The notes under the pieces were generated by a model, which searched no databases, had not been told where the DNA came from, and worked only from the letters and a program-made list of their open reading frames with translations. A stretch of 64,000 nt of DNA from the IMG/VR virus record IMGVR_UViG_3300025138_000015; one strand, given 5' to 3'. The translations under genes were made by a program, and so were the position numbers. The DNA is from a virus. This document shows, piece after piece, positions 15,627 through 57,415 of the stretch (positions within the stretch are counted from its first letter, which is position 1; each line of letters opens with the position of its first letter).

Positions 15627-15664
15627 ATAAATATCCTTAAACGAGTTATATACATCTATTTATG
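15626..15664. promoter_or_regulatory. Late promoters at the divergent gp48/gp4 junction
   Basis: TATAAATA on + at 15626-15633 (for gp4) and CATAAATA on - at 15657-15664 (for gp48). Confidence 0.7.
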
Positions 15665-16093
15665 TCATACAGTGGTAAGTTCAAACCAAAGAATTACAAA
15701 AAATACAAAGGAGACCCAACAAAAATCTTCTATCGTTCGCTATGGGAGCGAAGATTCATGGTTTATTGCGATAATAACGAAAATGTCATTGAATGGGGCA
15801 GTGAAGAAGTCATAATTCCTTATAAATCACCTTTAGACAAGAGAGTTCATCGTTATTTTCCCGATTTTTACATAAAATATGTAAATTCTGCTGGTCAAAC
15901 AGTAAGAGAAGTGATTGAAGTCAAACCAAAGAGACAATTACTGCCTCCGAAACCCCCAAAACGACAAACTAAGAGATATCTCAACGAAGTAGCTACATAT
16001 GCCGTAAATCAAGCTAAATTTAAAGCAGCGGAAGCATTTTGTAAAGAAAGAAGACTAAAATTTCGAATTTTAACTGAAGACCACCTTACATAA
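15662..16093 (+). CDS. gp4: Head completion nuclease gp4
   Basis: YSGKFKPKNYKKYKGDPT..YRSLWE, HRYFPDF, EVKP (TnsA-like endonuclease). Confidence 0.95.
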   Translation: MSYSGKFKPKNYKKYKGDPTKIFYRSLWERRFMVYCDNNENVIEWGSEEVIIPYKSPLDKRVHRYFPDFYIKYVNSAGQTVREVIEVKPKRQLLPPKPPKRQTKRYLNEVATYAVNQAKFKAAEAFCKERRLKFRILTEDHLT

Positions 16094-16109: not shown

Positions 16110-16685
16110 ATGTTAGACTTACTTGATAAAATTCAAAATGAATCTCCTTTGGAAAATGCTCAAAGAAGTAAAGAGAGTCTTGAATGGTTTAAAGGCAGAC
16201 TTAGAAAGATAAGACAACCAGTAAATAAACTACTAACTGATGATGATTTTCCTATAGTTAGTAGACCAGAGTTAGGCAGAATGTATATGTATCTTTATGA
16301 TGCAAAATACCAAGATTTGATGCCTTATTGGGATAAATTTCCACTCACTATTGTATTTGACTTACTTACAGACGGTTTTATGGGCATAAATTTACATTAC
16401 ATTGCACCAAGATATAGAACTGCATTACTTTTGAGTCTTTATGAGATTGCAGTTGATAACGATGACGATGAAGAACAAAGAGTTGCATTATCTTATCAAT
16501 TAATTAAGTCTGTTTCAGGTCTTAGATATGCAAAACCATGTGTAAAGAGATATCTTTACGGTCATGTCAACTCCAGAATAGCAGAAATTCCTATGGAGAA
16601 TTGGGACATGATGGCAATGTTGCCCTCACAAAAATTTAATGTAAACGCAAACACTGTATATGCAGAAAGTAGAGAGAAATTTTAA
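16110..16685 (+). CDS. gp2: DNA end protector protein gp2
   Basis: GRMYMYLYDAK..MPYWDKFPL, GINLHY, KPCVKRYL motifs. Confidence 0.92.
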   Translation: MLDLLDKIQNESPLENAQRSKESLEWFKGRLRKIRQPVNKLLTDDDFPIVSRPELGRMYMYLYDAKYQDLMPYWDKFPLTIVFDLLTDGFMGINLHYIAPRYRTALLLSLYEIAVDNDDDEEQRVALSYQLIKSVSGLRYAKPCVKRYLYGHVNSRIAEIPMENWDMMAMLPSQKFNVNANTVYAESREKF

Positions 16686-17368
16686 TGGATATTAATAAGA
16701 TAAAGGCCAATTTCGATTCAGGTGCGATGAACAATAGATTCGCAGTTAACATGTTCGGACCTGGTGGCATAAAGTTAGAAGGAGTTAGATGTGAAACTGC
16801 ATCACTTCCTGGTAGAAGTTTAACAACAAAAGATTTTGCAACGACAGGAACAATAACAAAAAAAGTCACACAAGTAAATAATACAAATGAAGTAGATTTC
16901 TCATTTGTGTGTGATTCAAGTTTCTTTGATAGATATATCATCGAGGCATGGCAATCTTCTATCTTCACTGCAGAAGACGGAAATAGTATCAAACCAATCT
17001 TTAATTATCCAAAAGATTATTATGGTACAATAGAAGTAGAACAATTTAGAAGAGATGATTCAATGGCATTAAGATACAAATTTCATGATGCATTTCCAGT
17101 CTCTTACGAACCAATGGCACTGTCAATGAGTGAAGGTGCCTTATTAAAATTTTCATGCAAATTTGCATTTAAAACATTTGATACTGAATATGGGGATGCC
17201 CCTCAACTTTCGGTACTAAATAAAGGAAGACGATATCTTGATTTAGCAAGAGAGAGTCTTACAGTTGCTAGTCGATACAACAACAAGTCTAAGGACTTTT
17301 TAGGGAAACTTAATAACTTAGATTCGGCGGGGTCAAGACTGAGCAATTTACTAGGTGGTGGCATCTAG
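16685..17368 (+). CDS. gp54: Baseplate tail-tube initiator gp54 (tail-tube fold)
   Basis: CETASLPGR, FNYPKDYYGTIEV, DAFP motifs; synteny. Confidence 0.75.
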   Translation: MDINKIKANFDSGAMNNRFAVNMFGPGGIKLEGVRCETASLPGRSLTTKDFATTGTITKKVTQVNNTNEVDFSFVCDSSFFDRYIIEAWQSSIFTAEDGNSIKPIFNYPKDYYGTIEVEQFRRDDSMALRYKFHDAFPVSYEPMALSMSEGALLKFSCKFAFKTFDTEYGDAPQLSVLNKGRRYLDLARESLTVASRYNNKSKDFLGKLNNLDSAGSRLSNLLGGGI

Positions 17369-17390: not shown

Positions 17391-18092
17391 ATGGGATTAC
17401 CAATCCAATCAGCACCGACATATAAAACGGTGCTACCAAGTAATGGTCTTGAAATAAAGTTTCGACCTTTTCTTGTTAAAGAACAAAAGGTATTGATGTT
17501 GGCAAAAGAGGGTGATGATAAAACTGAATCCCTCGAAGCAGTCAAAAATATGATTAATGATGTTACCTTTGGAGAGATTGATGCGAATGATTTAGCAATG
17601 ATAGACCTTGAATGGTTGTTCATTCAAATTCGTACAAAATCTGTTGGTGAAAGTGCAACTGTTAAAATGAAATGTCTGGAAGATGACTGTTCAGGAACAG
17701 GTGAGGCTTTAATCAATTTCGAGGAAGTAGAAGTTAAGGGAGAAATTCTTGACAATACTATAATGGTTAGTGATGATGTTGGAGTAGTTTTGAGATTACT
17801 CAAAGTAGAAGATACTAAAAGTGTACAAGATATGCCTGAAAATGAGGTGATATTTTATCTATTGAATAAGTCTATAGATAGAATCTTTGATGCAGAAAGT
17901 GTCTATGAGAGAACTGATATTAGTGACGCGGATGTAGATGAGTTTATTGAAAACTTAACCTTTGCACAACTAGGATTATTATCGGAATACTTTGAGAAAA
18001 CTCCTAAACTAACGAAAGAAGTAAATTTCAAATGTGAAATTTGCGGAACTCAACAGAGTAGAGTTTTAGAAGGATTACAAAATTTTTTCTAA
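17391..18092 (+). CDS. gp26: Baseplate hub assembly protein gp26
   Basis: LPSNGLEIKFRPFLVKEQKVL, DLEWLFIQIRTKSVGE, terminal LEGLQNFF. Confidence 0.92.
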   Translation: MGLPIQSAPTYKTVLPSNGLEIKFRPFLVKEQKVLMLAKEGDDKTESLEAVKNMINDVTFGEIDANDLAMIDLEWLFIQIRTKSVGESATVKMKCLEDDCSGTGEALINFEEVEVKGEILDNTIMVSDDVGVVLRLLKVEDTKSVQDMPENEVIFYLLNKSIDRIFDAESVYERTDISDADVDEFIENLTFAQLGLLSEYFEKTPKLTKEVNFKCEICGTQQSRVLEGLQNFF

Positions 18093-18271
18093 TAGCCCTT
18101 TCTCACGAGTCGGTGTATAACTATTATAACACCAACTTTCAGTTGATGCAACATCATAATTATCAATTATCAGAATTAGAAGATATGATGCCGTGGGAGA
18201 GGGAGATTTATACGAGTCTTCTCTTAAACTACTTAGAACAGGAAAAACAGAGACAGAAAAGTAAACAATAA
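18080..18271 (+). CDS. gp51: Baseplate hub assembly catalyst gp51-like ORF (in the -1 frame of gp26; start uncertain, possibly reached by frameshift)
   Basis: Not in the ORF track. Frame reads LIALSHESVYNYYNTNFQLMQHHNYQLSELEDMMPWEREIYTSLLLNYLEQEK, with the NF.LMQHH..L.E.E.MMPWER motif of gp51 homologues. Confidence 0.85.
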   Translation, partial: KFFLIALSHESVYNYYNTNFQLMQHHNYQLSELEDMMPWEREIYTSLLLNYLEQEKQRQKSKQ

Positions 18272-18313: not shown

Positions 18314-18694
18314 ATGGCAGAAGAACACAAAGACATGTCAAGCAATGAGGTGGAAATTGATTTAGATAAGTATATGGCACTTATCGAAAAACTTGACGCA
18401 CAAGAAGATGTAATCCGAGAAATGAAAGAAGATGCCATTAAGGCAAAACGCGGATTAGAACCACCAAAAAGAAAGTTTATAGATTTGTTCTTAGACGACA
18501 ATGATTTGAATGAGAAAGCAATCATCGGATTCATCTCATTCTTTTTAATGATGTGTTTCGGTATAACAGACTTAGTCACAGCACTAGTTTGGGATATAGA
18601 CTTAAAAGTCTCTGAAACAATCTATACATCATTTGTAGTAGTCACACTAGGTGCATTTGGAATATCAGAAGCTGGAAAAGCATTCGGTAAATAA
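18314..18694 (+). CDS. Coiled-coil plus two-TM membrane protein (holin candidate)
   Basis: Two C-terminal hydrophobic helices; GGAG RBS. Confidence 0.45.
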   Translation: MAEEHKDMSSNEVEIDLDKYMALIEKLDAQEDVIREMKEDAIKAKRGLEPPKRKFIDLFLDDNDLNEKAIIGFISFFLMMCFGITDLVTALVWDIDLKVSETIYTSFVVVTLGAFGISEAGKAFGK

Positions 18695-18705: not shown

Positions 18706-20823
18706 ATGGCAGACGAAGAGATAAAAAAGGTTCGTAAACAGATTTTAGACGAACTCAAAGACGCCCAAAAGAAAGAGAAAAAAATTCGTGCAGAGTTTAA
18801 TACAGAACTTGAAGAGTCTACTGTAGGAACAACTAAAGAATTTAAGAATGTTATCTCTAGTCTCGCTAAAACAAGACCAGAGGCAGCTAAAATTGTTTCT
18901 GAGTTTAAAGGTTTGTCTGCCGACACATTTAAAGGTGCCGTTCTTAATAGAGACCTTATTAAAGGTATGTCTGCTGCGACTGAAATGGCAGAAAAGGGTT
19001 GGAGTAATCTAACCGAAGAACAACAAGACATTCTATCAGATGTATTTGGTGGACAAGTTGCAAGAATGCAAGGTCTTGAACGAGAAGAAGAGAAATTTAC
19101 TAACCTTAGAAAAGAGGCCTTAATAAAACAAGGACAAACTCAACAAAAGATTACCGACTTAGATAAAGTAATGGCAGATGAGAAATCTTCTGCTCTTTCC
19201 GATGCAATGAAAGCAGTAAAAGATGCAGAAAAGAAAGCAGCGGAAAATGAAACAAAATCACAAGACTTTAAACTACAGGCAAAAATAGAACAGGCTAAAA
19301 ATGCTCTTGCAGACGAAGAATCAAACCAAGAAAAGATATTAAAAGAAAAATACAAAGGTCAACAAGAACTATTGTCTAAAGAAATGAAGGACAAAACTTT
19401 CTTTGTTGACCAACATGAAGAATCATTGTCTTCAATTGCACAACACCAAGAGAATGCTTCAAAAGAACTTAAAGCATCTATTGATAAATCTAAAGAAGAA
19501 CAGATGCAAGGCCTTTCAAATTTCTCTGATGGTTTTAAAGAACTTGTTGGTTTTGATATCATGGGAACATTCGATGGTGCAACTAAGAAGTTAAATGCAC
19601 TAGGTAAAGTTTTCGGTGGAGATGGAGTCTTAGGTGATAAGATTATGGGCAATCTCGGAAGAGTAATGCAAGATGCAGGAAAAGGAATTGGAAAAGCTGC
19701 AGGAAGTCTTAAAAAATCTTTGGGTTCTATGCTTTCAGGAGGCATGACGGCTCTTCGAGGTGCTTTCACGGCCATAGGTACAGGACTCGCAGCAGCGGGA
19801 ACTGCCTTAATGACAACACTGACCGCATTCGCTGCTGGTGCCGCTGCATTCATAGGTGGTTTAGCTATGACCGCAGGTGGTCTATTACTTGCCGCTGCAC
19901 CGTACATACTTGCAGGTATAGCTATTGTTGGTTTAGTCATGGCAGGTATGAAACTATATGAAGAGTCTGAAGGATTCAAGGCAGCGGTCGATACAGTTAT
20001 AGATTACTTCATAGATATTAAAGACTCTATCTTTACAATCTTTGGTGGATTCTTTGACTTCTTTAAAGGTCTATTTACAGGAGACTTCGACCTAATGTTC
20101 TCTGGTCTAAAAGATTCATTTGGTGGATTATGGGATTTAATAAAGGCACCATTTAAAGCAATCGGTAACTTCTTTAAGAATGTATTCGGTATTGACATTG
20201 GTAAGTTTATAAAAGACATGGCAAAGAAACTGTTACCAGATTGGGCAGTCAATCTGATATTCGGCAAAGATGATGAAGCACCGGCAGAAGAAGAACCTTT
20301 AAAGGAAAGAGATAAGTCTAAAGAAGCACTACAAGAACAAAATTTGGCCAGTGCTGAAGAATCTGGATTGTATGAAAAGGTTGGAATGTTTGGTAAGAGT
20401 CAAGTAAACAAAGACATGATTATCACTGCACCTAATAATCAGTTGAACGCCATTCTTTCTGATGATGATATTGCCGATGAGTCTAAAGAACTAATTCAAA
20501 AAGAACTAGAGGCAAGAAAATCAATCATTGCAGATTATAACGAAGCTAAAACAGCTCTTGCAAATGGTGAGACAAACTTAGCAGACGGTTCTGATGCAAG
20601 TCTAGTTATGGAATTTGCAGAAGACGATATGGCAAAGAGACGAGGTGATGATATCGAACAAGCAACACAAGATGCAAAACCAAATATAAATGCGGCCGCA
20701 GAGGCAGTTGCTTCAGTTGTTCAACAGAATAATAATAACTCTTCTACTAATGTTTTAGTTCGTAAGGATACTGCTAGAGACGAGAACGATAGATATTATA
20801 ACGATATGGTTGGTGACTTTTAA
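18706..20823 (+). CDS. Tail tape-measure / baseplate hub protein (gp29-like)
   Basis: Long coiled coil plus Ala/Gly-rich hydrophobic segment and F/W-periodic repeats; C-terminal VVQQNNNNSSTNV; follows gp26/gp51. Confidence 0.7.
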   Translation: MADEEIKKVRKQILDELKDAQKKEKKIRAEFNTELEESTVGTTKEFKNVISSLAKTRPEAAKIVSEFKGLSADTFKGAVLNRDLIKGMSAATEMAEKGWSNLTEEQQDILSDVFGGQVARMQGLEREEEKFTNLRKEALIKQGQTQQKITDLDKVMADEKSSALSDAMKAVKDAEKKAAENETKSQDFKLQAKIEQAKNALADEESNQEKILKEKYKGQQELLSKEMKDKTFFVDQHEESLSSIAQHQENASKELKASIDKSKEEQMQGLSNFSDGFKELVGFDIMGTFDGATKKLNALGKVFGGDGVLGDKIMGNLGRVMQDAGKGIGKAAGSLKKSLGSMLSGGMTALRGAFTAIGTGLAAAGTALMTTLTAFAAGAAAFIGGLAMTAGGLLLAAAPYILAGIAIVGLVMAGMKLYEESEGFKAAVDTVIDYFIDIKDSIFTIFGGFFDFFKGLFTGDFDLMFSGLKDSFGGLWDLIKAPFKAIGNFFKNVFGIDIGKFIKDMAKKLLPDWAVNLIFGKDDEAPAEEEPLKERDKSKEALQEQNLASAEESGLYEKVGMFGKSQVNKDMIITAPNNQLNAILSDDDIADESKELIQKELEARKSIIADYNEAKTALANGETNLADGSDASLVMEFAEDDMAKRRGDDIEQATQDAKPNINAAAEAVASVVQQNNNNSSTNVLVRKDTARDENDRYYNDMVGDF

Positions 20824-41431: not shown

Positions 41432-41504
41432 TGGAGCGGAGACATAGACTTGAACTATGAACTCAAACATGGAATGATTGCGTGTTGCATTACACCATCT
41501 CCGC
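41432..41504 (-). tRNA. tRNA-Gly(UCC)
   Basis: GCGGAGA acceptor, anticodon loop ATTCCAT, T-arm CATAG-TTCAAGT-CTATG, U73, CCA end; atypical D-loop. Confidence 0.85.
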
Positions 41505-41621
41505 TGAATAGGTGAGTATCTCTCTCATGTACTCTTGGCATTCTCAGTATACCTCTCTAGTGACTTACCTCTCTGCAATCCACGAACACATTCACTAGTT
41601 GATTTCGCTTCTTATACATCT

Positions 41622-41650
41622 ATTATACACCTATTGAGCGTATAATACAA
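41622..41650 (-). promoter_or_regulatory. Sigma70-type promoter upstream of tRNA-Gly
   Basis: TTGTAT-17-TATAAT. Confidence 0.6.
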
Positions 41651-41658
41651 GTGGTTTT

Positions 41659-41874
41659 TTAATGAAATACTGATTTATTTCCGTTAACCACTAAGTAATC
41701 TATCTGAATCTGACCTCGAATTTCGATATCAGTACGCAATTTAACATTCTCACACATGACATTCCAATCATGGTTACCACCTGCATGTATCAACTGCATC
41801 TCTCTTGCACTCAAAGGTATCTCTACCGCTTGTGAAGTTGCAAGGTGGACACCAATCAAACCATTCTCTATCAT
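41659..41874 (-). CDS. Hypothetical early protein
   Basis: 71-aa ORF coupled to an upstream peptide. Confidence 0.6.
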   Translation of the reverse strand: MIENGLIGVHLATSQAVEIPLSAREMQLIHAGGNHDWNVMCENVKLRTDIEIRGQIQIDYLVVNGNKSVFH

Positions 41875-41969
41875 GATATTAAACCTATGATGAGTGGTAC
41901 TATGAACAAGGATAACCCTTGAAGGAAGTCAGTATCTAATAATCCGTTTTTCTTTATTGCTTTTATCAT
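41871..41969 (-). CDS. 32-aa membrane peptide (leaderless)
   Basis: Not in track; MIKAIKKNGLLDTDFLQGLSLFIVPLIIGLIS; ATG 6 nt after the -10 box. Confidence 0.5.
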   Translation of the reverse strand: MIKAIKKNGLLDTDFLQGLSLFIVPLIIGLIS

Positions 41970-41975
41970 GGTACT

Positions 41976-42005
41976 AGTATATCAAAAAGTGAACAGCATT
42001 GTCAA
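41976..42005 (-). promoter_or_regulatory. Sigma70 early promoter
   Basis: TTGACA-18-TATACT with the CACTTTTTGA spacer shared with the 27.7/28.4 kb cassettes. Confidence 0.8.
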
Positions 42006-42045
42006 CGCCATGTATATCACTAGAATGGACTAGACAATAGGGGGT

Positions 42046-42086
42046 ATGGTACAGGTGTTTTAAGCAAATGGCAACGCCTTCGGAGA
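42046..42086 (-). promoter_or_regulatory. Sigma70 promoter with conserved upstream element
   Basis: TCTCCGAAGGCG-TTGCCA-17-TACCAT; 18 bp identical to 41381-41398. Confidence 0.65.
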
Positions 42087-42375
42087 CCTATCAACCACAG
42101 GGGTTAGGAGGGTGTCTCTCATGCTCTCTGAGACATCTATTCGCGTCTCTGAGATGCAGTGGGAGTAGGGGTTCCCGAGTGCTTTGACCCCATGCGTAAA
42201 ATGTGTTTTGTATCTCTTAACACGCTCAGTGAAACCAGTAAACTCCACCGTAGGCGAAACCATGATATATTTGATTATTTTCTCACACTTTGACACACTT
42301 CTGCACACATTATATTCGATTACAGAATGGACTCTGAGAAATTATATTCCAACATGCATTCCTACTGCATTCCTT

Positions 42376-42450
42376 TGGCGTCCCTACTAGGATTCGAACC
42401 TAGACTAAGAGTTTAGAAGACTCTGGTGCTATCCATTACACTATAAGGAC
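42376..42450 (-). tRNA. tRNA-Arg(UCU)
   Basis: Cloverleaf; AGAGT-CTTCTAA-ACTCT; GTTCGAATC; CCA end. Confidence 0.95.
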
Positions 42451-42460
42451 TATAAGAGAA

Positions 42461-43108
42461 TTACTTTGAGTTGAATCTATTCGTTATTCTCTTCATTCTA
42501 TCATGCATATTCATATGTGATATGAAGTCGGTGGTTTCACTCTCTATTTGTTCTTTGATGAGTGGGTGGTTATCATGGTATATGTCCATTGCCATTGATA
42601 TACGAGGGGTATTACTCATGTGTGAGTTGACTCCGTGTTCTACCATACTACCTATCAGGTGCATGACTCCTTGTGAATTACGCTCGTAGGTTTCGTTGTA
42701 GTGTGTACCTGTTGTTTCAGGTCCTGATATGAATGTGTTTGATGCGTAGAAGTTGTTGTAGTCTGTAGGTATATTCTCTTCCGCGTGGAAGTGTGGTGGT
42801 ATATTCTCTGTCTGACGGAGTATATTGACCCAACATTGAACATATAGTACCTCTTCGTCTTGGAATTCGGGAAGCGTAAAGAGTCTCTTCGGTATATCGA
42901 ATATCTCTAGGTCTGGATTGTTTAACCAATTGTATACTGGAAATTGATTTGTTGTACCTGTGTACGATGACTTTTGGTTATTCGGTATCGAAAGTACCAT
43001 ACGCTCGTCGCGTAATAGTATCTTCGATAGTCGATTGCACTCTTCTGGTGTGAAGAGGTTGTATTGTGACCTATGTGTGTAGGGGTCGTATTCTTTTATA
43101 AAACCCAT
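42461..43108 (-). CDS. Putative 2OG-Fe(II) oxygenase
   Basis: WVNILR..IPPHFH, VEHGV, PRISMAMD. Confidence 0.7.
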   Translation of the reverse strand: MGFIKEYDPYTHRSQYNLFTPEECNRLSKILLRDERMVLSIPNNQKSSYTGTTNQFPVYNWLNNPDLEIFDIPKRLFTLPEFQDEEVLYVQCWVNILRQTENIPPHFHAEENIPTDYNNFYASNTFISGPETTGTHYNETYERNSQGVMHLIGSMVEHGVNSHMSNTPRISMAMDIYHDNHPLIKEQIESETTDFISHMNMHDRMKRITNRFNSK

Positions 43109-44016
43109 AGTCGTAGATAAAGGTCTTGCATCATACCTTCTCCTTTGACTGATAGAAATCTACAATGACGATTAAGTCTTTTCCACTCATGTCCGAAGTA
43201 TACAAATGCTGATTCCATTTGTTCTATTCCTTCTGGACCTGGTGCTCCATCCCATATTCCAGGGAAGTAAGGTAATACTTTCTCATCCCATACATCATTG
43301 AATTCTGTATTTCTATTCTCGTCATTAATATACCAAGGTGCATATGTTCCAGGAGGTGGTGCAAGTTTCATACCTGTGAAGTTGTCACTGATATATGCAC
43401 CTAATCCTTTCTCTTGTTCTTCTGGTGTATATGTCTCTTTAGTGAGTTCTGAACAGTCATTACCATTGAATCTAATTAAGTCTGTCTGAATACTAGGTGT
43501 GTCTTCCCACCATGAGGAGGTGACTCCTAGATATGGTGATTTAGTATCTCTGATTGATACCATTTGTTCACCTGTCAATTTGATGTGAGTCGGTAGTTCT
43601 GATATCTCACCTGCCATAGGGATTCTTTCAATGTAGAACTTCTGACATAGTTCAAGTGGTAAGAAATTGATGTCGTTGATAACAATCATGTCTTCTGAAG
43701 ACCAATCACCGTTTTTAAACAAGTCTAACTTATAGAACTCATCGTTGGTGATATCATCTCTCTTAGTAAGAGGTTTAATAGTCATACCAAAGTTTGTTTC
43801 GAGTCCTTCTGCATTATCAGTATAACAGATAACATTAAGTTTAAGAAAAGGTAATATAACATCTACTCTATGACGAAGTAGTAGTTTCTGTATTGCGTTG
43901 ACCTTATCGATTGAATCTTGGTCATGTGTAGTCTTTAATAAAACTACATTTAAATTGGTTTGATTTGTTAAACCTTGACTATGTTGTTCTTCTATTGATT
44001 GTGTTGTGTCATTCAT
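43096..44016 (-). CDS. Hypothetical protein, possible glycosyltransferase (GT-A-like)
   Basis: ICYTDN..GL and YKLDLF resemble phage GT-like proteins; DxD not clearly conserved. Confidence 0.45.
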   Translation of the reverse strand: MNDTTQSIEEQHSQGLTNQTNLNVVLLKTTHDQDSIDKVNAIQKLLLRHRVDVILPFLKLNVICYTDNAEGLETNFGMTIKPLTKRDDITNDEFYKLDLFKNGDWSSEDMIVINDINFLPLELCQKFYIERIPMAGEISELPTHIKLTGEQMVSIRDTKSPYLGVTSSWWEDTPSIQTDLIRFNGNDCSELTKETYTPEEQEKGLGAYISDNFTGMKLAPPPGTYAPWYINDENRNTEFNDVWDEKVLPYFPGIWDGAPGPEGIEQMESAFVYFGHEWKRLNRHCRFLSVKGEGMMQDLYLRLWVL

Positions 44017-44048
44017 TATTATTCAATTTCTCCATGTTATATGAATAT

Positions 44049-44402
44049 TTATCTTCTCATACGAGCAAGGTCTTTTGCATATTGACCTTTCTCACCTATT
44101 TCCTCTTCAAAGACTGGCACAAGATTACTCTTATGCATGACTGCAATACCTAGGAGTTTTCTTTCACCTGTATATTGCATAGGTTCTTGTTTACACATAT
44201 GTGACAAGTCACCTGTAGTCCCTGTATATGAGGGATAGTCCTCGATTCTCAATTCAGATACAATTTTATTGTATTGTCTTTGTTGAGATTCTAATAACTC
44301 ATTGTATTTAGTTCGTTTGGATTTAACAGAAAAGGCCTTTGTCTTTCTTTTCTTACCATGTGGTCCGTATTTAATACTTGACCCTAAATTAATAAAACCC
44401 AT
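44049..44402 (-). CDS. Conserved phage hypothetical protein
   Basis: YTGERKLLGIAVMHKSNLVPVF...DLARMRR. Confidence 0.75.
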   Translation of the reverse strand: MGFINLGSSIKYGPHGKKRKTKAFSVKSKRTKYNELLESQQRQYNKIVSELRIEDYPSYTGTTGDLSHMCKQEPMQYTGERKLLGIAVMHKSNLVPVFEEEIGEKGQYAKDLARMRR

Positions 44403-44408
44403 ACACTA

Positions 44409-44437
44409 AGTATACTCGGTGTATGGGGTTTTGTCAA
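44409..44437 (-). promoter_or_regulatory. Sigma70 promoter (leaderless transcript)
   Basis: TTGACA-17-TATACT, 6 nt from the ATG. Confidence 0.8.
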
Positions 44438-44442
44438 GTGTT

Positions 44443-44580
44443 TTATGAAACTAATTTTACTACTTTGTGTAGTCGTCCTGATTTCATTAACTTGTTAAAT
44501 CTGCCTAATGGTCGTCTATAAGTTATCTTTGAAAGATATCTAGTGATGAACGAGGCAGACAATGATGCTCTATATGACAT
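44443..44580 (-). CDS. 45-aa basic peptide
   Basis: Not in track; MSYRASLSASFITRYLSKITYRRPLGRFNKLMKSGRLHKVVKLVS; AGGAG RBS. Confidence 0.6.
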   Translation of the reverse strand: MSYRASLSASFITRYLSKITYRRPLGRFNKLMKSGRLHKVVKLVS

Positions 44581-44598
44581 TGTTATCTCCTGTTGTGT

Positions 44599-44693
44599 TG
44601 AAACTCTCCGACATCTGCACTTCGATTTCTCTACTTAGTCTTGTGTCTTACTTGTTTCAGTTATGTGTCATTTGTGTGACACTAGTATTTATA
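44599..44693 (-). promoter_or_regulatory. Late promoter TATAAATA (44686-44693) plus structured 5' leader
   Basis: Exact late box, then hairpins including AGUA-GA-GAAA-UC-GAA. Confidence 0.55.
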
Positions 44694-44700
44694 AGGAAAG

Positions 44701-44790
44701 TGGCGGAAGATGAAGGATTCGAACCTTCGATACCGATAAAGGTATGCTGGTTTTCAAGACCAGTGCATTCAACCACTCTGCCAATCTTCC
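44701..44790 (-). tRNA. tRNA-Ser(UGA)
   Basis: CTGGT-CTTGAAA-ACCAG, long variable arm, CCA end. Confidence 0.95.
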
Positions 44791-44797
44791 TTATAAG

Positions 44798-44873
44798 TGG
44801 TGGAGCTAGAGGGAATCGAACCCACGACCTACTGATTGCAAACCAGTCGCTCTCCCAACTGAGCTATAGCCCC
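44798..44873 (-). tRNA. tRNA-Ala(UGC)
   Basis: GGGGCTA acceptor with G3:U70, anticodon loop TTTGCAA, CCA end. Confidence 0.95.
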
Positions 44874-44881
44874 TTAATTGT

Positions 44882-45049
44882 TTATTCTTTTGTCTTCTTA
44901 GTCTTTGTTGTTCTTGACTTATAGACCTTTTTGTATGCTTCGTTAACATCAGGTGTTGATTTGTCGTCTGCAACATAACGACCTTTCTCGTCTCTTGCTC
45001 TAACAGTTTCGTAACCTAACCATGTTGTTAATTTATCCCAAAATGCCAT
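44882..45049 (-). CDS. Small conserved hypothetical protein
   Basis: Not in track; RARDEKGRYVADDKSTPDVNEAY motif. Confidence 0.65.
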   Translation of the reverse strand: MAFWDKLTTWLGYETVRARDEKGRYVADDKSTPDVNEAYKKVYKSRTTKTKKTKE

Positions 45050-45272
45050 TTTCTTTTTCCTCAGTTGTGAATACTATGTTAGCTAATCCTAACTTTCTTC
45101 GTCTATCAAACTCAATGTTGATTTTTCTTTTTAATCTACCAGTTGTATTGGCATTGTTAAACTTTTCAATCAATGTTTTAATTGATTGTTGTTTCATATA
45201 TTGGTGAGTAGTGGTTTTCTTACCTGTTCCTCTCTCTACTGTGACCTGTGTCGGTCCAAATTTTACTGGCAT
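45033..45272 (-). CDS. Hypothetical basic protein
   Basis: MPVKFGPT; AGGA RBS. Confidence 0.65.
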   Translation of the reverse strand: MPVKFGPTQVTVERGTGKKTTTHQYMKQQSIKTLIEKFNNANTTGRLKRKINIEFDRRRKLGLANIVFTTEEKENGILG

Positions 45273-45273
45273 A

Positions 45274-45420
45274 TTATTTCCTGTTTTCTTGATACCATTT
45301 CAGTGAACACTCAGGTCCACAAAAAATGATAGCTTCATTGTTTTCATTTGGTGCAGTGTGATACTTTACCTCTTCTATAGGTACCATTGTATCACAAACT
45401 TCACATTTATAATAGTGCAT
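45274..45420 (-). CDS. Small TRASH/YHS-like metal-binding protein
   Basis: Not in track; CEVC...FCGPECS. Confidence 0.6.
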   Translation of the reverse strand: MHYYKCEVCDTMVPIEEVKYHTAPNENNEAIIFCGPECSLKWYQENRK

Positions 45421-46054
45421 TATATGTTAAACTTTCAGTTTCTTCTAACATATCATCATTAGCAGCTTGTATGACTTCATCTGGTAATGGGTCATGTGAT
45501 AACTCATTCTGAAACCATACTGCAAGAACTGTTCTTATTCCTGTTTTCACTGTTGAGACACCATGCCATACAGATGTAGAATGATTAAATAATACTGCAT
45601 CACCTTGATTTGCATTAAATGTAATATCATCTACAATTAAATTGCCACCTGTGTAATCATCATCTAAAAAAATGACTGCAGTTGCAGTATCGAATGTGTC
45701 TGCATTGTCGTTATGAAACGGCATGCTAGAACCTGTTGGATATTCCATTACTTGCATGTATGAAATAAACTCAAAATCTTTATGCTCTGGTATAGTAGGC
45801 ATTATCTTATCTGCAAAATACATGTAATCTTCTTCAGAAGAGGGTGTTATGTTCCAACATAATCTACCTAGTTTATCTATATACTTGAAACTGTCCTTCT
45901 CATCATCATTTACAACTTGCACTTCTTGTTCTTCTAGGTACTCAACTTCAGTTTTTTCTTTCTGTTTAAACTTATGCATTATAAGACGACAAGTATCCTT
46001 TTTCATTGACTTAGGCGTATACATAAGTATTCTTGGCTCAGTAGAACTTGTCAT
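45407..46054 (-). CDS. 2OG-Fe(II) oxygenase (prolyl-4-hydroxylase-like)
   Basis: FHND, FLDDDYTGG, WHGVSTVKTGIR..LAVWF. Confidence 0.88.
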   Translation of the reverse strand: MTSSTEPRILMYTPKSMKKDTCRLIMHKFKQKEKTEVEYLEEQEVQVVNDDEKDSFKYIDKLGRLCWNITPSSEEDYMYFADKIMPTIPEHKDFEFISYMQVMEYPTGSSMPFHNDNADTFDTATAVIFLDDDYTGGNLIVDDITFNANQGDAVLFNHSTSVWHGVSTVKTGIRTVLAVWFQNELSHDPLPDEVIQAANDDMLEETESLTYNALL

Positions 46055-46055
46055 T

Positions 46056-46739
46056 TTATCTGGTCTCCGGATGTAAGAATCTAACTTGTGAACATCTCCA
46101 AGAATCCTTCAGTTTAGAGTAGTCATCTACCCATGCACCGTGTATTCTATTGCCTGGAAATATAACACATCTATTGAATTTTGCAGGTATAACTCTGTTA
46201 GTAGTAAATCGGTCATTTACAGGATACATGAGATTAAACCTTTCATCATTTGTTACCCATTCACCCTCATATACGGCAGTTCCACCATCTTCTAGTTTGT
46301 CTAAGTAGACAATCATGTTCAGTGTAGAACGAGTATCTGGTGTGGACAACTCCTCGTCTGTATGTGGGTAATGTTGTATCTTAGGGTTATCAATGTTAAT
46401 TGACTGAAACAAATTGAACTCATAAAAGTGTGACCAATGATAGTCACCTTTCCAGAAATGTTTTCTACAAAAGTGCAACACTCTATCCATATCTGAATAA
46501 TACTTTCTTGTAGGGTGTGATATGTTATCGTTGATTCTGCAATCATAGTAATCTACACCATTTGCACTATTTCTTTCTGCATTGTATTTCCACAATGGGA
46601 AATCTCTTTGCATTATATGGTCATGTAGGTCTTCTGGATTCTCATAGAAGTTATCAATCGTTAAACAGAAACCATCGAATGTTGGATTCCAGTTGTCTGC
46701 AAACGAATAGAGTTCATCCATGTCATAGACTTTACTCAT
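46056..46739 (-). CDS. 2OG-Fe(II) oxygenase-like protein
   Basis: IDNFYENP, PHTD, VYL..GGTAVY, KFNRCVIF...HGA, R. Confidence 0.78.
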   Translation of the reverse strand: MSKVYDMDELYSFADNWNPTFDGFCLTIDNFYENPEDLHDHIMQRDFPLWKYNAERNSANGVDYYDCRINDNISHPTRKYYSDMDRVLHFCRKHFWKGDYHWSHFYEFNLFQSINIDNPKIQHYPHTDEELSTPDTRSTLNMIVYLDKLEDGGTAVYEGEWVTNDERFNLMYPVNDRFTTNRVIPAKFNRCVIFPGNRIHGAWVDDYSKLKDSWRCSQVRFLHPETR

Positions 46740-47632
46740 AGTAATAATCCACCTTTAGGTCTGTTATCACTCTTCTCACTCGCACCAAGAGGGTCAAGTA
46801 AAACTCTTTCTCTTCTCGATAAATCTAAATTCTTTTCTACAGGCATATCTTCTCTTTCAACAACTTGTTGTTCTTGTACTGGTTGTTCTAAGAAACCATA
46901 TTCTAAATCATCGGTTGATTCACCTTGATTGGGAACTCCGACTGGATGATGTAGATTGAATGAGATAGATATTCTCTCATATTCTGGTTCTGTATTTCTT
47001 ATTGGTGGGACTTCATGCATTAACATACTTGGCCATAATAAGAACTCGTTTGTTCTAGGGAAAAATTCTATCATATCATGATAACAAGGTCCACCTATAA
47101 ATTTTGCATTGTCATATTCAGGTTTACTCCAGTCGTTAGTAGGTAAATTAAGTGCATGAGCAAATGCTGGATTAGGATTTCTAAACTGTATTGGTTGAGT
47201 ATCTTCATCTTGAATTGATGGATACCATGTGCCTGACATATAAGAATTTATGTGATTATGTGATGGATGACTATGTTCTTTATTATAGACATTGACCCAT
47301 GCAAATAAGTGTAAATCATTTCTTTTGATATGACCAACTGATTGACCATAACAAACTTGTATGAATTGTATGTAAGTGTCTTTGATTTGTTCTGCAAATT
47401 CTTTATACCATGGTAATAGTATTAGTTTCTGTCTCAGTTCTTCGTTAAAATAACTAGTATAGTTCTTAGATTCATCATCGTTATGCAGTTCTTTTGCCTC
47501 TGCAACTAAACTCCTACAATCACTTTGAACCTGTTCTAAATCCATATCTCTGAGTATTCCTCTTAATATGGGTGTAGAAAAGATATCTATCTGTTCACAA
47601 TCACTTGCAGCTTTCCAATCACTTGTTTGCAT
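46736..47632 (-). CDS. Putative 2OG-Fe(II) oxygenase (TIGR02466-like)
   Basis: WVNVY..HPSHNH..SGTWY, WPSMLMHEV, RISISFN. Confidence 0.82.
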   Translation of the reverse strand: MQTSDWKAASDCEQIDIFSTPILRGILRDMDLEQVQSDCRSLVAEAKELHNDDESKNYTSYFNEELRQKLILLPWYKEFAEQIKDTYIQFIQVCYGQSVGHIKRNDLHLFAWVNVYNKEHSHPSHNHINSYMSGTWYPSIQDEDTQPIQFRNPNPAFAHALNLPTNDWSKPEYDNAKFIGGPCYHDMIEFFPRTNEFLLWPSMLMHEVPPIRNTEPEYERISISFNLHHPVGVPNQGESTDDLEYGFLEQPVQEQQVVEREDMPVEKNLDLSRRERVLLDPLGASEKSDNRPKGGLLL

Positions 47633-47634
47633 AA

Positions 47635-48168
47635 TTAATCCTTTTTTTCTACTTGAACACCAACACCTTTTTCACCGTTAGGCATAGTGACATCACGATA
47701 ATATATCACGACCTCACCTAGTTGTTTGATGTATCGTTTTAGTTCTTGCATATCTTCTGCCATGACTTTGTAATCACCAACAGTAGATGCAACGAAGACG
47801 ACTTCTCCGTTATTTAACTCTTTCATTTCATCTAAGAATCTATCTAAGTATGTATAACCCTCAGGCCAATCTGGATTTTCTCTTTCTGATAAATCACATG
47901 CCTTAGGTCTTTTGAGTTGTTCTACACCTTTATCATCAAATCTTTTAGGTTCAAATGATAGTGTTCTCTTACATGGGTTTACTATTCGTGCCTCTGATAC
48001 GACATACCATTTTGGTGCAGTCAAATTGACTGGTCTTGGTAAATCAGGTTGCATGATGTCAATCACAACAGGTTTAGATACTATCTCTACTTGTTTTGTC
48101 CCCAATAGAGAACAACCACTAGTCGTTAGTAGTAGGATTGCCAATACTATATAATTTCTTAGTATCAT
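47635..48168 (-). CDS. Outer-membrane spanin (Rz1-like lipoprotein)
   Basis: Lipobox TSGC, Pro-rich segment, C-terminal ELKRYIKQL..VVIYY; overlaps the i-spanin. Confidence 0.7.
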   Translation of the reverse strand: MILRNYIVLAILLLTTSGCSLLGTKQVEIVSKPVVIDIMQPDLPRPVNLTAPKWYVVSEARIVNPCKRTLSFEPKRFDDKGVEQLKRPKACDLSERENPDWPEGYTYLDRFLDEMKELNNGEVVFVASTVGDYKVMAEDMQELKRYIKQLGEVVIYYRDVTMPNGEKGVGVQVEKKD

Positions 48169-48502
48169 CTTCGAGTCCCTCCATCACTGCCTCTGAGGCA
48201 TTGTTAAATCTTAGTTCTATCATACCTGGTTTTTTCATTGCAAGTAAGTCTAAATTGTGTCTACTGAATATTGAAAGATACTCTGCCTTCTCTTGTTCGA
48301 TTTGTGCATTTACTCTTGTCATGTTCATCAGTGCCTTACCTTGTTTTTCGTAAGACTCTTTCATCGCCGTCATGGTGGCTTTCTGTTCTTCTACTGCAGT
48401 TTCTAACTTAAAGTTGTTTGCAGTGAGTGTTTGATTTTCTTGGTATAACCAGTAAGATGCTAATCCTAGTACCAGTAATATACCTATAAGTGCTTGTTGC
48501 AT
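48119..48502 (-). CDS. Inner-membrane spanin (Rz-like)
   Basis: N-terminal TM then coiled coil; LAMKKPGMIE..N motif as in T4-like i-spanins. Confidence 0.72.
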   Translation of the reverse strand: MQQALIGILLVLGLASYWLYQENQTLTANNFKLETAVEEQKATMTAMKESYEKQGKALMNMTRVNAQIEQEKAEYLSIFSRHNLDLLAMKKPGMIELRFNNASEAVMEGLEDDTKKLYSIGNPTTND

Positions 48503-48744
48503 TATTTCTCCTCTATTTTATAGTCTAGTCCTTTTGAAGACCTGACTTCTATCATCTTCTTACTTTCCCAATCACGAAACTTTAGATGTTTTTCTTTTTG
48601 AATGATTACCTTTCTGGCAACATAATGTGATTTGTACATTTGACCAGTGGTTTCAGATTGTCTGTATAGTGTGATTTCATATTCAGTGTGAAACAAACTT
48701 CTGAGAAAATTCATCAGTTTGTCCATGAATGTTTTGTTGTCCAT
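48502..48744 (-). CDS. Hypothetical protein
   Basis: GAGG RBS; CTAAATA late-like box upstream. Confidence 0.65.
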   Translation of the reverse strand: MDNKTFMDKLMNFLRSLFHTEYEITLYRQSETTGQMYKSHYVARKVIIQKEKHLKFRDWESKKMIEVRSSKGLDYKIEEK

Positions 48745-48778
48745 AATATATCCTCGATATACCTTTATTTAGTATGCG

Positions 48779-48812
48779 AAAAAAGGTGGGTTTCTTTAAA
48801 GTCTAAACCCAC
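48779..48812 (-). terminator. Intrinsic terminator
   Basis: GTGGGTTT...AAACCCAC followed by CTTTTTT on the minus strand. Confidence 0.7.
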
Positions 48813-48887
48813 ACACCGAAAAATCGACTCGCAATTTCAGTTATATTATTTTAAGTCGTTATAACTGGACGCAATGCTCAAGAACGA

Positions 48888-49385
48888 CTATTTTCTTAAT
48901 TTTTTAAGTTCATTGATTGTGTTCTCAGCACTAGTATGAACAATACCAATACCACCATTCTCAACCCAACTATCAATGTTCTTTTGTCTATCATCAACTA
49001 GAATACTACCTTCAAAGGCATACATTCCTTTCTGACTGCCAGTGAATGTGCAAGTGACCGCAATTGTAGGGTCAACGAACTCTCTAATCCACTCGTTTTT
49101 ATCATAAACACATAACTCTCTGTTGACTTCACCAGCCGCAGTTAATATCTCCCACGGTACCTTTGTGTGTCTAACATATGCAAGTAAATCATACATATCT
49201 ACCATCGGTGGTAGATTTCTGAATAATCTCTTGTTGGTTAACTCTTCTTTTCTTGCATCATAAATCGCATGACCATGTGCATCTGGTGTAATATTGACTC
49301 CTGCCAACTTAGATGCACCAGCCTGGAAATCGGCCAACACACCATCCATATCAAGGAAAATTCTTTTTATCTCAATCTTTTTCAT
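48888..49385 (-). CDS. HAD-family 5'(3')-deoxyribonucleotidase
   Basis: FLDMDGVLADF, ILTA, K, ILVDDRQKNIDSW..GGIGIVH. Confidence 0.88.
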   Translation of the reverse strand: MKKIEIKRIFLDMDGVLADFQAGASKLAGVNITPDAHGHAIYDARKEELTNKRLFRNLPPMVDMYDLLAYVRHTKVPWEILTAAGEVNRELCVYDKNEWIREFVDPTIAVTCTFTGSQKGMYAFEGSILVDDRQKNIDSWVENGGIGIVHTSAENTINELKKLRK

Positions 49386-49391
49386 ACTTAT

Positions 49392-49421
49392 ATTATACCA
49401 GAAATCATACCGCTTTGGCAA
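49392..49421 (-). promoter_or_regulatory. Sigma70 promoter (leaderless transcript)
   Basis: TTGCCA-18-TATAAT, 6 nt from ATG 49385. Confidence 0.7.
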
Positions 49422-49731
49422 GCGTTTTCAGTGTTTTTTCTAGTGCATATGCCTCTGATTCATCTATTGTTCCGTTCTCTAAAACTTGACGGACATGCAC
49501 CATTTCGTGTGCAAGGGTGATGAATCTTTCGTTGTCATATTTGATGTAAATGTCTAAGTGAACCTTAGAGTCATCTTTTTTGTGTGGGTATTCTATCAAT
49601 CCAGACTGCCTGAACTGAGGTGGTAATCGTTTGATGTATAAAACAGACTTAGGTATGTCTGTTATGCCTAACTGTTCTGCAATATAGACTGCATTAGTTA
49701 ACATCCAACTGTCTTTACAATAAATCTCCAT
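49405..49731 (-). CDS. Zincin-like metallopeptidase domain protein
   Basis: TLAHEMVHVRQ...ESEAY (HExxH + E). Confidence 0.72.
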   Translation of the reverse strand: MEIYCKDSWMLTNAVYIAEQLGITDIPKSVLYIKRLPPQFRQSGLIEYPHKKDDSKVHLDIYIKYDNERFITLAHEMVHVRQVLENGTIDESEAYALEKTLKTLAKAV

Positions 49732-49861
49732 CGTCTTCTATCTCATCACTATAAGTATCTCCACAGAACGGACAAAACCTTAATTCATTGTCTCCGTCAT
49801 GTTCGATTTCACATTCACTCATACAGTTATTACAAAACATCATTTCTTTTTCATTTCTCAT
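49715..49861 (-). CDS. Small zinc-ribbon protein
   Basis: Not in track; CNNC...FCPFCG. Confidence 0.65.
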   Translation of the reverse strand: MRNEKEMMFCNNCMSECEIEHDGDNELRFCPFCGDTYSDEIEDDGDLL

Positions 49862-50145
49862 TATAATAAATCCTCATCAAAAGTTGTTCCGTCTATCGCT
49901 TTTTGTGTTTTGACCATAATCCTATCGAATGCCTCTGGAAAACCTGTCACTTTTCCATTAACTGTTAAGTATGGTGGTTTTGCCTCTACAGAGGACTTTT
50001 CTACATCTAATCCTACTATGTATGTTCTACATGTTTGATATTCTCTATCAACCATTTTCATAAGATGCTCATATCTTTGACAAATCAATTTGGTTTCACC
50101 GACTTGGTCTACAGTTGCAGGAAGATATAACAAATACTCGTTCAT
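49861..50145 (-). CDS. Hypothetical protein (possible degenerate thioredoxin fold)
   Basis: PPYLTVNGKVTGF resembles the glutaredoxin C-terminal half. Confidence 0.55.
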   Translation of the reverse strand: MNEYLLYLPATVDQVGETKLICQRYEHLMKMVDREYQTCRTYIVGLDVEKSSVEAKPPYLTVNGKVTGFPEAFDRIMVKTQKAIDGTTFDEDLL

Positions 50146-50384
50146 TATTCTACCAATAGTTTTCTATTGTTGTGCCATTCTTGTAGGTTATCAAAACCAC
50201 CTATTGCTTCACCATCAATTCTAATTTGTGGGAAAGTTCTTGCAGTTGGAAATTCTTCGAAGAGTTGTTCTCTTGTAAAATCCTCATCTAACATTTTGTA
50301 GGTGTACTCGTATCCATGTTGTTCACATAGATTTTTTGCCTTTACACAGTAAGGGCATGCTGGTTTACTGAATATTTCTATCAT
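50145..50384 (-). CDS. nrdC: Glutaredoxin
   Basis: CPYC, RTFPQI, IGGF. Confidence 0.93.
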   Translation of the reverse strand: MIEIFSKPACPYCVKAKNLCEQHGYEYTYKMLDEDFTREQLFEEFPTARTFPQIRIDGEAIGGFDNLQEWHNNRKLLVE

Positions 50385-50551
50385 AATAAGTGTTCACTCC
50401 TTGTTTTCTTAGCAGTATATATTGTTCCTGTCTTACGACCATAATATGGGGTTTTTTCTACACCTTTAGTGCCTTCTGCAAAAAAGATTAATGACACTAG
50501 TGACACTAGTGCAACCCATAAAATTCCTATTAATAATATTGCGTCTATCAT
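50381..50551 (-). CDS. Small membrane protein
   Basis: Not in track; MIDAILLIGILWVALVSLVSLIFFAEG; overlaps both neighbours. Confidence 0.55.
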   Translation of the reverse strand: MIDAILLIGILWVALVSLVSLIFFAEGTKGVEKTPYYGRKTGTIYTAKKTRSEHLL

Positions 50552-51645: not shown

Positions 51646-52601
51646 TAAATTAAATCCTCTTCCACCTTTCCTGTCAAATATGAATAGTTGTTCACATACA
51701 AATGTTTGTCTGGTGTGTTATCCCACACTTTAGTACACCAGTTATCAAGACTATGTTCACCTTGTATTGGTTCATCAGACCATCTGCTCTCTCTTCCATC
51801 CCATTCAGTCACCAGATTTCTACTATGTGGGTTAGTACCTGGTTTATTGTATGAATAACCATCTAAACTACACAATTTACTTCTCATGTTAACAAAATGT
51901 AAGAACATGTGATAACTGTAATCACCACAAAAGGTATTTCTCCAATGTGGTATATTAGGTCCTTGATATAGTAAGACATCACCTACTTCAAGTTCTACTG
52001 CAATACCGTCATGTATATCTTGTGTGACTTGTTTAATCCAATGTTGCCCTTGTTGGTCATTGTGATTTGAATAATTATGTTTGTTATTTAACCATATCTT
52101 CCAAGGTGTATTATCATCTGATTTATATTTTAAAGGAAATGTACAACTAATTTCACAAGATGGTCTATCTGTATGTGATGACAATGATGCACCTCTGATA
52201 TATCTTCTACTGAATGAATAGGTCTCTTGTAGTTTTATATCTAAGACAGGATTAAGTGCATTCTTCATCCAACGATGTAGACCTACTGCAGGTGGAAAAT
52301 TGTATGCACCATGAGATTTGTTTCTCTGTTCTTTTGGTGTAGAATGTGTTAACTCATCTTCTTTCATGAAGTGTGCATTGTATTGTCTTTCATCATTCTC
52401 AATGCATTCCCACGAATCATTGACCATGTCTATGATTTCTTTTGGTATGAAATTCTTTAGAACAACATATCTGTTGTTAACAAAATCTAAAGTTGTCTGA
52501 CTTGTTTTACCTGTCCATTTGATTTTGTCGGCATCTTGCCTATTCTCTTTTACTGAAACATCAAAGTCGTATAACTTATCTTTTTTAGATTGCACATGCA
52601 T
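51645..52601 (-). CDS. 2OG-Fe(II) oxygenase inserted between nrdA and nrdB
   Basis: TYSFSRRY, HTDRPSCEIS, GDVLLYQG..HWR, FLHFV. Confidence 0.8.
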   Translation of the reverse strand: MHVQSKKDKLYDFDVSVKENRQDADKIKWTGKTSQTTLDFVNNRYVVLKNFIPKEIIDMVNDSWECIENDERQYNAHFMKEDELTHSTPKEQRNKSHGAYNFPPAVGLHRWMKNALNPVLDIKLQETYSFSRRYIRGASLSSHTDRPSCEISCTFPLKYKSDDNTPWKIWLNNKHNYSNHNDQQGQHWIKQVTQDIHDGIAVELEVGDVLLYQGPNIPHWRNTFCGDYSYHMFLHFVNMRSKLCSLDGYSYNKPGTNPHSRNLVTEWDGRESRWSDEPIQGEHSLDNWCTKVWDNTPDKHLYVNNYSYLTGKVEEDLI

Positions 52602-55940: not shown

Positions 55941-55947
55941 AACTACT

Positions 55948-55976: not shown

Positions 55977-55983
55977 GTGGTTT

Positions 55984-57412: not shown

Positions 57413-57415
57413 AAT

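Follow-up and report, generated by a model that had tools for sequence, protein, structure and literature searches.

The frameshift that produces tail assembly chaperones is among the most widely conserved viral recoding events, and T4 is the best-studied contractile-tailed phage. A −1 shift on a heptamer also makes the tau and gamma products of Escherichia coli dnaX, where the shift truncates the protein, is stimulated by an SD-like sequence within the gene, some 10 nt upstream, and involves, in addition, a strong stem-loop downstream. Among phages, the reference case is lambda gpG/gpGT, in which G binds the tape measure protein while the T part of GT recruits the tube protein, the ratio being 30:1 (PMC5009743); this system and the conserved chaperone frameshift go back to Levin 1993 and to Xu, Hendrix, and Duda 2004, 2013, and 2014, cited here as reviewed in PMC5009743. 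In the contractile-tailed phage P2, E and E+E' arise by a −1 shift on TTTTTTG with no downstream structure, according to the summary of Christie et al. 2002 in PMC3091744. T4 itself is named by Atkins et al. 2016 as an exception to the G-T frameshift (PMC5009743). Leiman et al. 2010 (PMC3004832) list its gp26 and gp51 as chaperones of hub assembly, and gene 51 is essential, with gp51 being needed for assembly yet absent from the finished tail (PMC3004832).

We analyzed a 64-kb stretch of DNA (IMG/VR virus record IMGVR_UViG_3300025138_000015; hereafter the window) from an uncultured marine T4-like phage in which, as we consider very probable from its sequence, a programmed −1 ribosomal frameshift makes a gp26-51 fusion. 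The features relevant to this proposal are the following:

16685-17368, tube-family gene directly upstream of the gp26 gene (phrog_45, 4e-26)
17391-18092, plus strand, gp26-like gene of 233 aa from the open reading frame (ORF) list (PF12322 T4_baseplate, 1.3e-49; phrog_150 "baseplate hub", 1.4e-53)
18069-18074, plus strand, SD-like GAAGGA, 8 nt 5' of the T_TTT_TTC heptamer (9 nt from its last G), a candidate stimulator of the dnaX type
18080-18086, plus strand, second heptamer A_AAT_TTT in zero-frame phase, named in the initial annotation
18083-18089, plus strand, slippery heptamer T_TTT_TTC, an X_XXY_YYZ sequence in zero-frame phase and the proposed −1 shift site
18089-18271, plus strand, −1 frame extension with the gp51-specific module, 60 codons plus stop (predicted long product of 293 aa)
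18090-18092, plus strand, zero-frame stop TAA, which abuts the heptamer ("shifty stop" context)
18314-18694, plus strand, 126-codon ORF from the ORF list, separating the chaperone gene from the tape-measure-like gene (SD −5.9 kcal/mol)
18706-20823, plus strand, gp29-like protein of 705 aa, probable tape measure or hub protein and presumed chaperone client

The gp26-like ORF belongs to PF12322 with 169.2 bits against a curated cut-off of 24.5 and matches T4 gp26 over its full length (BLASTP 6e-9), the two proteins sharing a common end with the motif GL..FF. Its surroundings are of the T4 morphogenesis type: A gp48-like tube cap gene lies on the opposite strand, and genes for a gp4-like head completion protein and a gp2-like DNA end protector are also found 5' of the gp26 gene, whose direct 5' neighbor is the tube-family gene. 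On the 3' side, beyond the 126-codon ORF, follows a weakly identified tape-measure-like gene. Its 705-aa product gave weak PHROG matches (9e-5 and 1e-4) to families of tail length tape measure proteins, a weak BLASTP match to T4 gp29 (1e-3), and no match in a Pfam search, and its assignment as a tape measure or gp29-like protein is moderately supported by position and composition. The 126-codon ORF itself had no match in Pfam and PHROG searches; small ORFs occupy the equivalent position in the phages Mosig, Melnitz, phiM9, and phiM19. The initial annotation had placed the frameshift upstream of the tape measure gene, and it is indeed upstream but not adjacent, with this ORF lying in between.

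The gp26-like gene ends with CAA AAT TTT TTC TAA and thereby contains two overlapping heptamers in phase, just as the initial annotation, whose statements on the sequence are all correct, had reported. An open −1 frame extends from 18062 to a stop codon at 18269-18271, which corresponds to the 63 codons that had been counted from 18080 and to 60 new codons after a slip on T_TTT_TTC. Such a slip predicts a junction reading ...GLQNFF followed by LIALSHES..., and the predicted GluC peptide across the gp26-51 junction is GLQNFFLIALSHE. That the −1 frame encodes a gp51-like sequence was borne out by a match of the −1 piece to phrog_634 "baseplate hub assembly catalyst" (7e-26) and of the −1 peptide to residues 193-249 of T4 gp51 (BLASTP 5e-7). 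The −1 piece also matches the C-terminal part of phrog_150 (231-276 of 282), the same family as the gp26 body. Its first ATG (18146) lies within a conserved LMQHH motif, and the sole earlier start-like codon is the GTG at 18113. The SD duplex energies of these codons are +1.6 and −1.8 kcal/mol, respectively, in agreement with the weak ribosome binding site noted earlier at the GTG, compared to −5.6 to −5.9 kcal/mol at the starts of gp26, of the 126-codon ORF, and of the tape-measure-like gene. The gp51 piece of the window thus appears to have no usable independent start because there is no SD at either codon.

For a comparison that counts the window itself as one locus, we collected 80 IMG/VR loci related to the gp26 gene of the window (from 100% down to 32% gp26 identity) and added the cultured marine phages ACG-2014e (Synechococcus), P-HM1 (Prochlorococcus), Mosig (Pelagibacter), and Melnitz (Methylophilales). 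Distant phages found with the −1 peptide were Aeromonas phages Ahp1 and AS-zj, Vibrio phage ValKK3, Sinorhizobium phages phiM9 and phiM19, and Paraglaciecola phage GD1, and 3 further loci were added later, giving a total of 53 distinct junctions from several phage families. A gp51-like piece was found in the −1 frame in 85/85 loci of the first survey, in 91/91 loci with the distant phages (all 91 with an intact −1 ORF), and in the later loci. The gp26 3' ends share the sequence xxT TTT TTN in the same zero-frame phase in 53/53 distinct junctions, down to 32% gp26 identity, so that the heptamer and the −1 phase postulated for the window are invariant across the survey. Variable phase in combination with good independent gp51 starts, which would speak against a frameshift, was not seen. 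Of the two heptamers that had been put forward, only the one at T_TTT_TTC stood up to this comparison; A_AAT_TTT is present in 11 of 44 distinct junctions and was rejected as the working site. By conservation, the putative working heptamer is T_TTT_TTC.

The last base of the heptamer varies freely among the first 50 junctions (20 C, 18 A, 11 T, and 1 G), as predicted for the Z of X_XXY_YYZ, and even changes Phe to Leu. In 50/50 junctions, TTT occupies the P site, and the preceding codon, whether for N, S, D, or G, always ends in T. Outside the junctions, these genes use TTT for 80% of their Phe residues and have T at 80% of two-fold NNY third positions; the resulting argument of 0.64 per junction overstates independence since the loci are related, so we take the invariant codons as support and not as a formal probability. 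It should also be considered that FF is conserved as protein and alone gives five of the six T's. The zero-frame stop codon follows the heptamer immediately in 17/50 junctions and after 1 codon in another 30 (0-1 codons in 47/50). In several relatives (L001, L002, L004, L029, and L073), a −1-frame stop directly 5' of the heptamer is combined with a zero-frame stop directly 3' of it, which means that a change of frame is possible only on the heptamer in these loci.

The peptide that follows the heptamer has the consensus FFxIxLSHDSLxNYYxTNF..., with L6, S7, H8, N13, Y14, N18, and F19 conserved in 41-48 of 50 sequences. Over the 24 bases right after the heptamer, column entropy by codon phase in the −1 frame is highest at position 3 (1.46), lower at position 1 (0.93), and lowest at position 2 (0.68), with the same pattern further downstream, and therefore indicates protein-level selection in the −1 frame from the heptamer on. 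Candidate gp51 starts are found in variable places that are mostly within the conserved peptide: The first ATG is located at codon 20-21 or later in most of the 50 sequences, and the earliest start-like codon of whatever kind ranges from codon 3 to codon 34. As judged from these alignments, selection at the protein level acts on the predicted −1 peptide as early as the slip site, 5' of any usable start codon.

The relation of this arrangement to T4 is one of homology. The gp26 (208 aa) and gp51 (249 aa) proteins of T4 come from two separate genes transcribed in divergent directions, but both match PF12322 over around 200 residues (gp26 with 215.6 bits and 8.8e-64, gp51 with 177.5 bits and 3.9e-52) as well as each other and are therefore paralogues; GenBank record MT409116 labels both of them "tape measure protein assembly chaperone". 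T4 gp51 combines the PF12322 domain with a C-terminal stretch (about residues 193-249) in a single polypeptide. When the zero frame up to the heptamer was joined by script to the −1 frame after it, these virtual fusions aligned to six T-even gp51 proteins without any gap through the junction, whereas T-even gp26 proteins end 3-6 residues past the junction column. A −1 shift in the window would thus recreate the architecture of T4 gp51, while standard decoding gives that of gp26, and the gp51-specific module is contiguous with the PF12322 body only via the −1 shift. The 3' ends of T-even-type gp26 genes (T4, Acinetobacter phage Octan, Krischvirus KFS-EC, Aeromonas phage 44RR2.8t, Proteus phage Pm5461, and RB16) keep FF or FL at this place but contain no heptamer, with the equivalent site of T4 gp26 reading GAG TTC TTT GAG. 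Complete genomes encode one PF12322 gene in P-HM1, Mosig, ValKK3, and phiM9 but two in T4. The window has a single PF12322-like region and a single region with the gp51 module, and no second gp26/gp51-type gene was found in its 64 kb or in the four complete frameshift-type genomes. The window and the T-even phages therefore differ in that the former has one gene with a −1 extension, of which the short form resembles gp26 and the predicted long form has its domains ordered as in gp51, while the latter have two separate, mostly divergent paralogous genes without the heptamer.

Sequences around the heptamer suggest how a shift might be stimulated. The upstream GAAGGA pairs with the anti-SD at −5.5 kcal/mol, and the mean energy of the upstream SD-like duplex over 50 junctions is −6.4 kcal/mol compared to −1.8 kcal/mol in other 16-nt windows of the same genes. 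The SD-like sequence (GAGG or AAGGA) is formed by conserved Glu-Gly codons with a distinctive codon choice, as Glu is encoded by GAG in 19/28 cases (background 25%) and Gly by GGT in 18% (background 48%). This signal is suggestive only because it is partly forced by the conserved E-G residues; with this proviso, the element and the stop codon next to the heptamer are plausible candidates for stimulators acting at the level of the ribosome. RNAalifold gave no consensus for a conserved downstream RNA stem across the junctions. Two hairpins were considered and rejected: One of alignment columns 13-20 with 25-32, attractive in some lineages, is paired in only 64% of cells despite apparent third-position covariation of Leu and Asp/Glu codons, and its version in the window, a proximal hairpin (−2.4 kcal/mol), is no better than shuffled sequences; a more distal one at 18107-18138 (z −2.3) begins 17 nt past the heptamer and is lost in close relatives.

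An AlphaFold2 model of the gp26-like protein (pLDDT 85.6, from an alignment of 31 sequences) was compared over residues 1-95 to 48,161 chains, and the top three matches were 3fgx (Z 7.7), 2ob9, a tail assembly chaperone of HK97 (Z 7.0; 81 residues aligned, rmsd 3.6), and YqbN (3klu, Z 6.7), although Z scores of about 7 lie in a range regarded as common for this kind of search. ORF12 of lactococcal phage p2 (3d8l) scored Z 2.9 in the same search. Foldseek against the PDB returned nothing for the model, Pfam searches at E values up to 10 gave no tail-chaperone family, and a sequence search of solved structures gave nothing relevant. The modeled N-terminal domain thus likely has a tail assembly chaperone fold, which we do not regard as established because the Z scores lie in the common range and Foldseek found nothing. 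For the −1 extension, AlphaFold2 predicts a small four-helix module (pLDDT 83), and a fold search with these 62 residues gave no match above Z 4.7.

The gp51-like piece could alternatively be a separate small gene that is expressed without any recoding, either from its own start or by termination-reinitiation, at GTG 18113, ATG 18146, or the non-canonical ATA 18092. Annotators have treated it in this way in P-HM1, Mosig, Melnitz, ValKK3, phiM9, and phiM19, and separate initiation is possible in phiM9-like phages, phiM19, ValKK3, and GD1, where an ATG overlaps or abuts the gp26 stop. Across the survey, however, the first start-like codon is not only variable but mostly situated past 10-20 conserved residues, whereas protein-type conservation begins at the heptamer, and the codon at the position of the ATA varies between ATA, ATT, GTA, GTG, and TTA. 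ACG-2014e has no start codon until inside the conserved motif, and its gp51 was left unannotated. Independent initiation would also leave the invariant heptamer and the fixed −1 phase unexplained, and we consider it unlikely. Another idea, that the −1 frame is the decaying remnant of a once-fused gene and that the T run is incidental to the FF motif, can draw on the fact that FF is also kept in T-even gp26, which needs no shift. It is contradicted by the residue conservation and codon-phase entropy, which are at odds with neutral evolution. The extension is conserved as protein across families (7 invariant and 11 nearly invariant columns), and its ORF is intact in all 91 loci. Moreover, this is the sole copy of the gp51-specific module in complete genomes, and its T4 equivalent, gene 51, is essential (PMC3004832), which makes decay extremely improbable.

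A third explanation would yield the very same protein, since RNA polymerase could slip on the T run and add one U so that part of the mRNAs encode the fusion in frame. The site is homopolymeric, with T6 in the window and T7-T8 in 11/50 junctions, and sequence conservation alone cannot tell transcriptional slippage from a ribosomal shift. Yet efficient transcriptional slippage in bacteria has been described on runs of about 9 or more A or T, and the run consists of only six T's in the window and in 39/50 junctions. The Z position is not enriched for T (11/50), so run length has not been maximized, and neither the SD-like element nor the stop codon next to the heptamer would act on the polymerase, both being signals for ribosomes. 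The shift of P2 on the closely similar TTTTTTG is likewise reported as translational in the summary given in PMC3091744. We therefore view transcriptional slippage as very unlikely and retain programmed −1 ribosomal frameshifting as the favored explanation.

Under ribosomal frameshifting, most ribosomes translating the gp26-like gene would stop at the TAA at 18090 and release the 233-aa protein, while a minority would slip back by one base with two tRNA-Phe on the TTT TTC of T_TTT_TTC, both of which would re-pair with TTT. These ribosomes would read CTA from 18089 and add 60 residues to give the 293-aa protein, with the gp51 architecture of a gp26-like body that carries a small helical module at its C-terminus. 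Stimulation would likely come from the stop codon next to the heptamer and from the GAAGGA 8 nt upstream, and downstream RNA structure would be unnecessary, as for P2 E/E+E'. The analogy to lambda G/GT, together with T4 genetics, suggests that the shared body may hold the gp29-like tape measure or hub protein and that the extra module of the rare long form may link this complex to another component of the hub or tube. With one gene and one mRNA, we propose that the ratio of short to long form would be fixed. The sequence signals, their conservation, and the homology to T4 are observed directly; that ribosomes slip here, how efficiently they do so, and which proteins the products bind is what we infer from them.

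The closest precedent is P2 E/E+E', which, in the description given in PMC3091744, shares with the window a contractile tail, a small tail gene with a six-T heptamer close to its 3' end, the lack of a downstream structure, and a common N-terminus of both products. The same description gives 91 aa for E and 142 aa for E+E' compared to 233 and 293 aa here, where an extra Cys-containing domain is present, and places the P2 gene directly between the tube and tape measure genes, whereas the 126-codon ORF intervenes in the window. There is no detectable sequence similarity between the two systems, and the P2 shift, as summarized there, was shown experimentally while that of the window is predicted from sequence. 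Lambda is similar in that a single gene, located 5' of the tape measure gene or, in the window, of its probable counterpart, yields (in the window by prediction) a short chaperone in abundance and rarely a −1-extended form, that neither product is found in the virion, just as T4 gp51 is absent from the finished tail (PMC3004832), and that the best matches of the modeled N-terminal domain include the HK97 chaperone 2ob9. It differs by its heptamer (G_GGA_AAG instead of T_TTT_TTC) and by the protein family, as the window encodes a PF12322 protein of about twice the length; furthermore, the partners of G (tape measure) and T (tube protein) were shown for lambda, while those in the window are assigned by analogy. 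The proposal in the initial annotation that gp26/gp26-51 is the T4-like equivalent of lambda G/G-T gains support from the paralogous, chaperone-like gp26 and gp51 of T4, from the modeled N-terminal domain, and from the review in PMC5009743. With dnaX, the locus has in common a comparable upstream SD-like element that lies at a suitable distance and is enriched across junctions; unlike in dnaX, there is no conserved stem, and the shift extends rather than truncates the protein.

A full-text literature search found no report of a gp26/gp51 frameshift. Database records matching the −1 piece number 576, and none of ten frameshift-type records that we examined has a joined coding sequence (CDS) at the site; most annotate a separate small gp51 CDS and two have none. 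If the site works, several hundred deposited genomes would require corrected gene models, their gp51 being mis-annotated or missing.

The mechanism proposed here is of a known kind, and its added value is that it would account for the T4 exception and suggests that the 26/51 pair of T-even phages is a frameshift resolved by duplication. T4 being cited as an exception would be explained by the fact that it makes the pair from two genes, 26 and 51. It is somewhat more probable than the opposite that a G/GT-type frameshift is ancestral to the T4 superfamily (Kyanoviridae, Pootjesviridae, Emdodecavirus, and the KVP40-like and Aeromonas branches of Straboviridae) and that T-even 26/51 represents its resolution into two genes. 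If true, paralogues would here have naturally taken the place of a recoded gene pair, with the long enigmatic gp51 of T4 as the "GT" form and gp26 as the "G" form. Should the site function as predicted, the T4 exception would disappear, since most T4-like phages, including abundant marine cyanophages and pelagiphages, would frameshift while T-even phages encode both forms separately. The T-even phages would then constitute a natural experiment in replacing a fixed-ratio recoding device by two genes.

Some lineages carry a strong hairpin 6-7 nt 3' of the slippery heptamer at which gp26 is proposed to shift into the -1 frame, as at the gp26/gp51 junctions of the compared loci L054, L041, L068 and L002, with stems such as GGCTATC-tcac-GATAGCC and GCCCTC-tttcac-GAGGGC. 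At these four junctions, the third position of an Asp or Glu codon compensates that of a Leu codon. The strong hairpin is limited to certain lineages, and the clade of the window is without it. In the distant relatives ValKK3 (L088), phiM9 (L089), phiM19 (L090), GD1 (L091) and two further loci (L105 and L106), an ATG shares bases with the stop codon of gp26 or adjoins it (TAATG, TGATG or ATGA) immediately 3' of the conserved heptamer. These phages could make a small gp51 from a start of its own, either beside the frameshift product or instead of it.

The following features of the window concern gp26 itself and other genes:

15662-16093, + strand: gp4-like head completion protein (phrog_218, 1e-60)
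17673-17690 and 18033-18044: cysteine pattern C-x4-C ... C-x2-C (C95, C100, C215, C218) in the second domain of gp26
18314-18694, + strand: 126-codon ORF that separates the chaperone gene from the tape-measure-like gene
41432-58839, - strand: five tRNA genes (Gly-tcc, Arg-tct, Ser-tga, Ala-tgc, Thr-tgt), none of them for tRNA-Phe

The 126-codon ORF has a good Shine-Dalgarno sequence and encodes two hydrophobic stretches, and it matched none of the Pfam and PHROG families searched; in Mosig, Melnitz, phiM9 and phiM19, small ORFs without annotated function take the same position. The gp4-like protein also matches the Pfam Tn7_TnsA-like_N endonuclease N-terminal domain (2.5e-24).

In a structural search, zinc-ribbon-like folds (NrdR, ZPR1) were weak matches of the second domain of the AlphaFold2 model of gp26. 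Only C95 is invariant among the four cysteines across 31 homologues, and the last pair is gone from many cyanophage-type sequences. T4 gp26 retains C-x-C ... C-x2-C. The pattern may represent a degenerating zinc ribbon.

T-even gp26 proteins (T4, L005, 3803-3830 on the minus strand, and L099-L103) continue for 3-6 residues beyond the FF/FL column, reading ELL, EVL, KIL or KVVG. Because these ends resemble the start of the gp51-specific extension (KLL, KIL, KII), the sequences hint that a fused or frameshifting ancestor gave rise to the gp26/gp51 pair.
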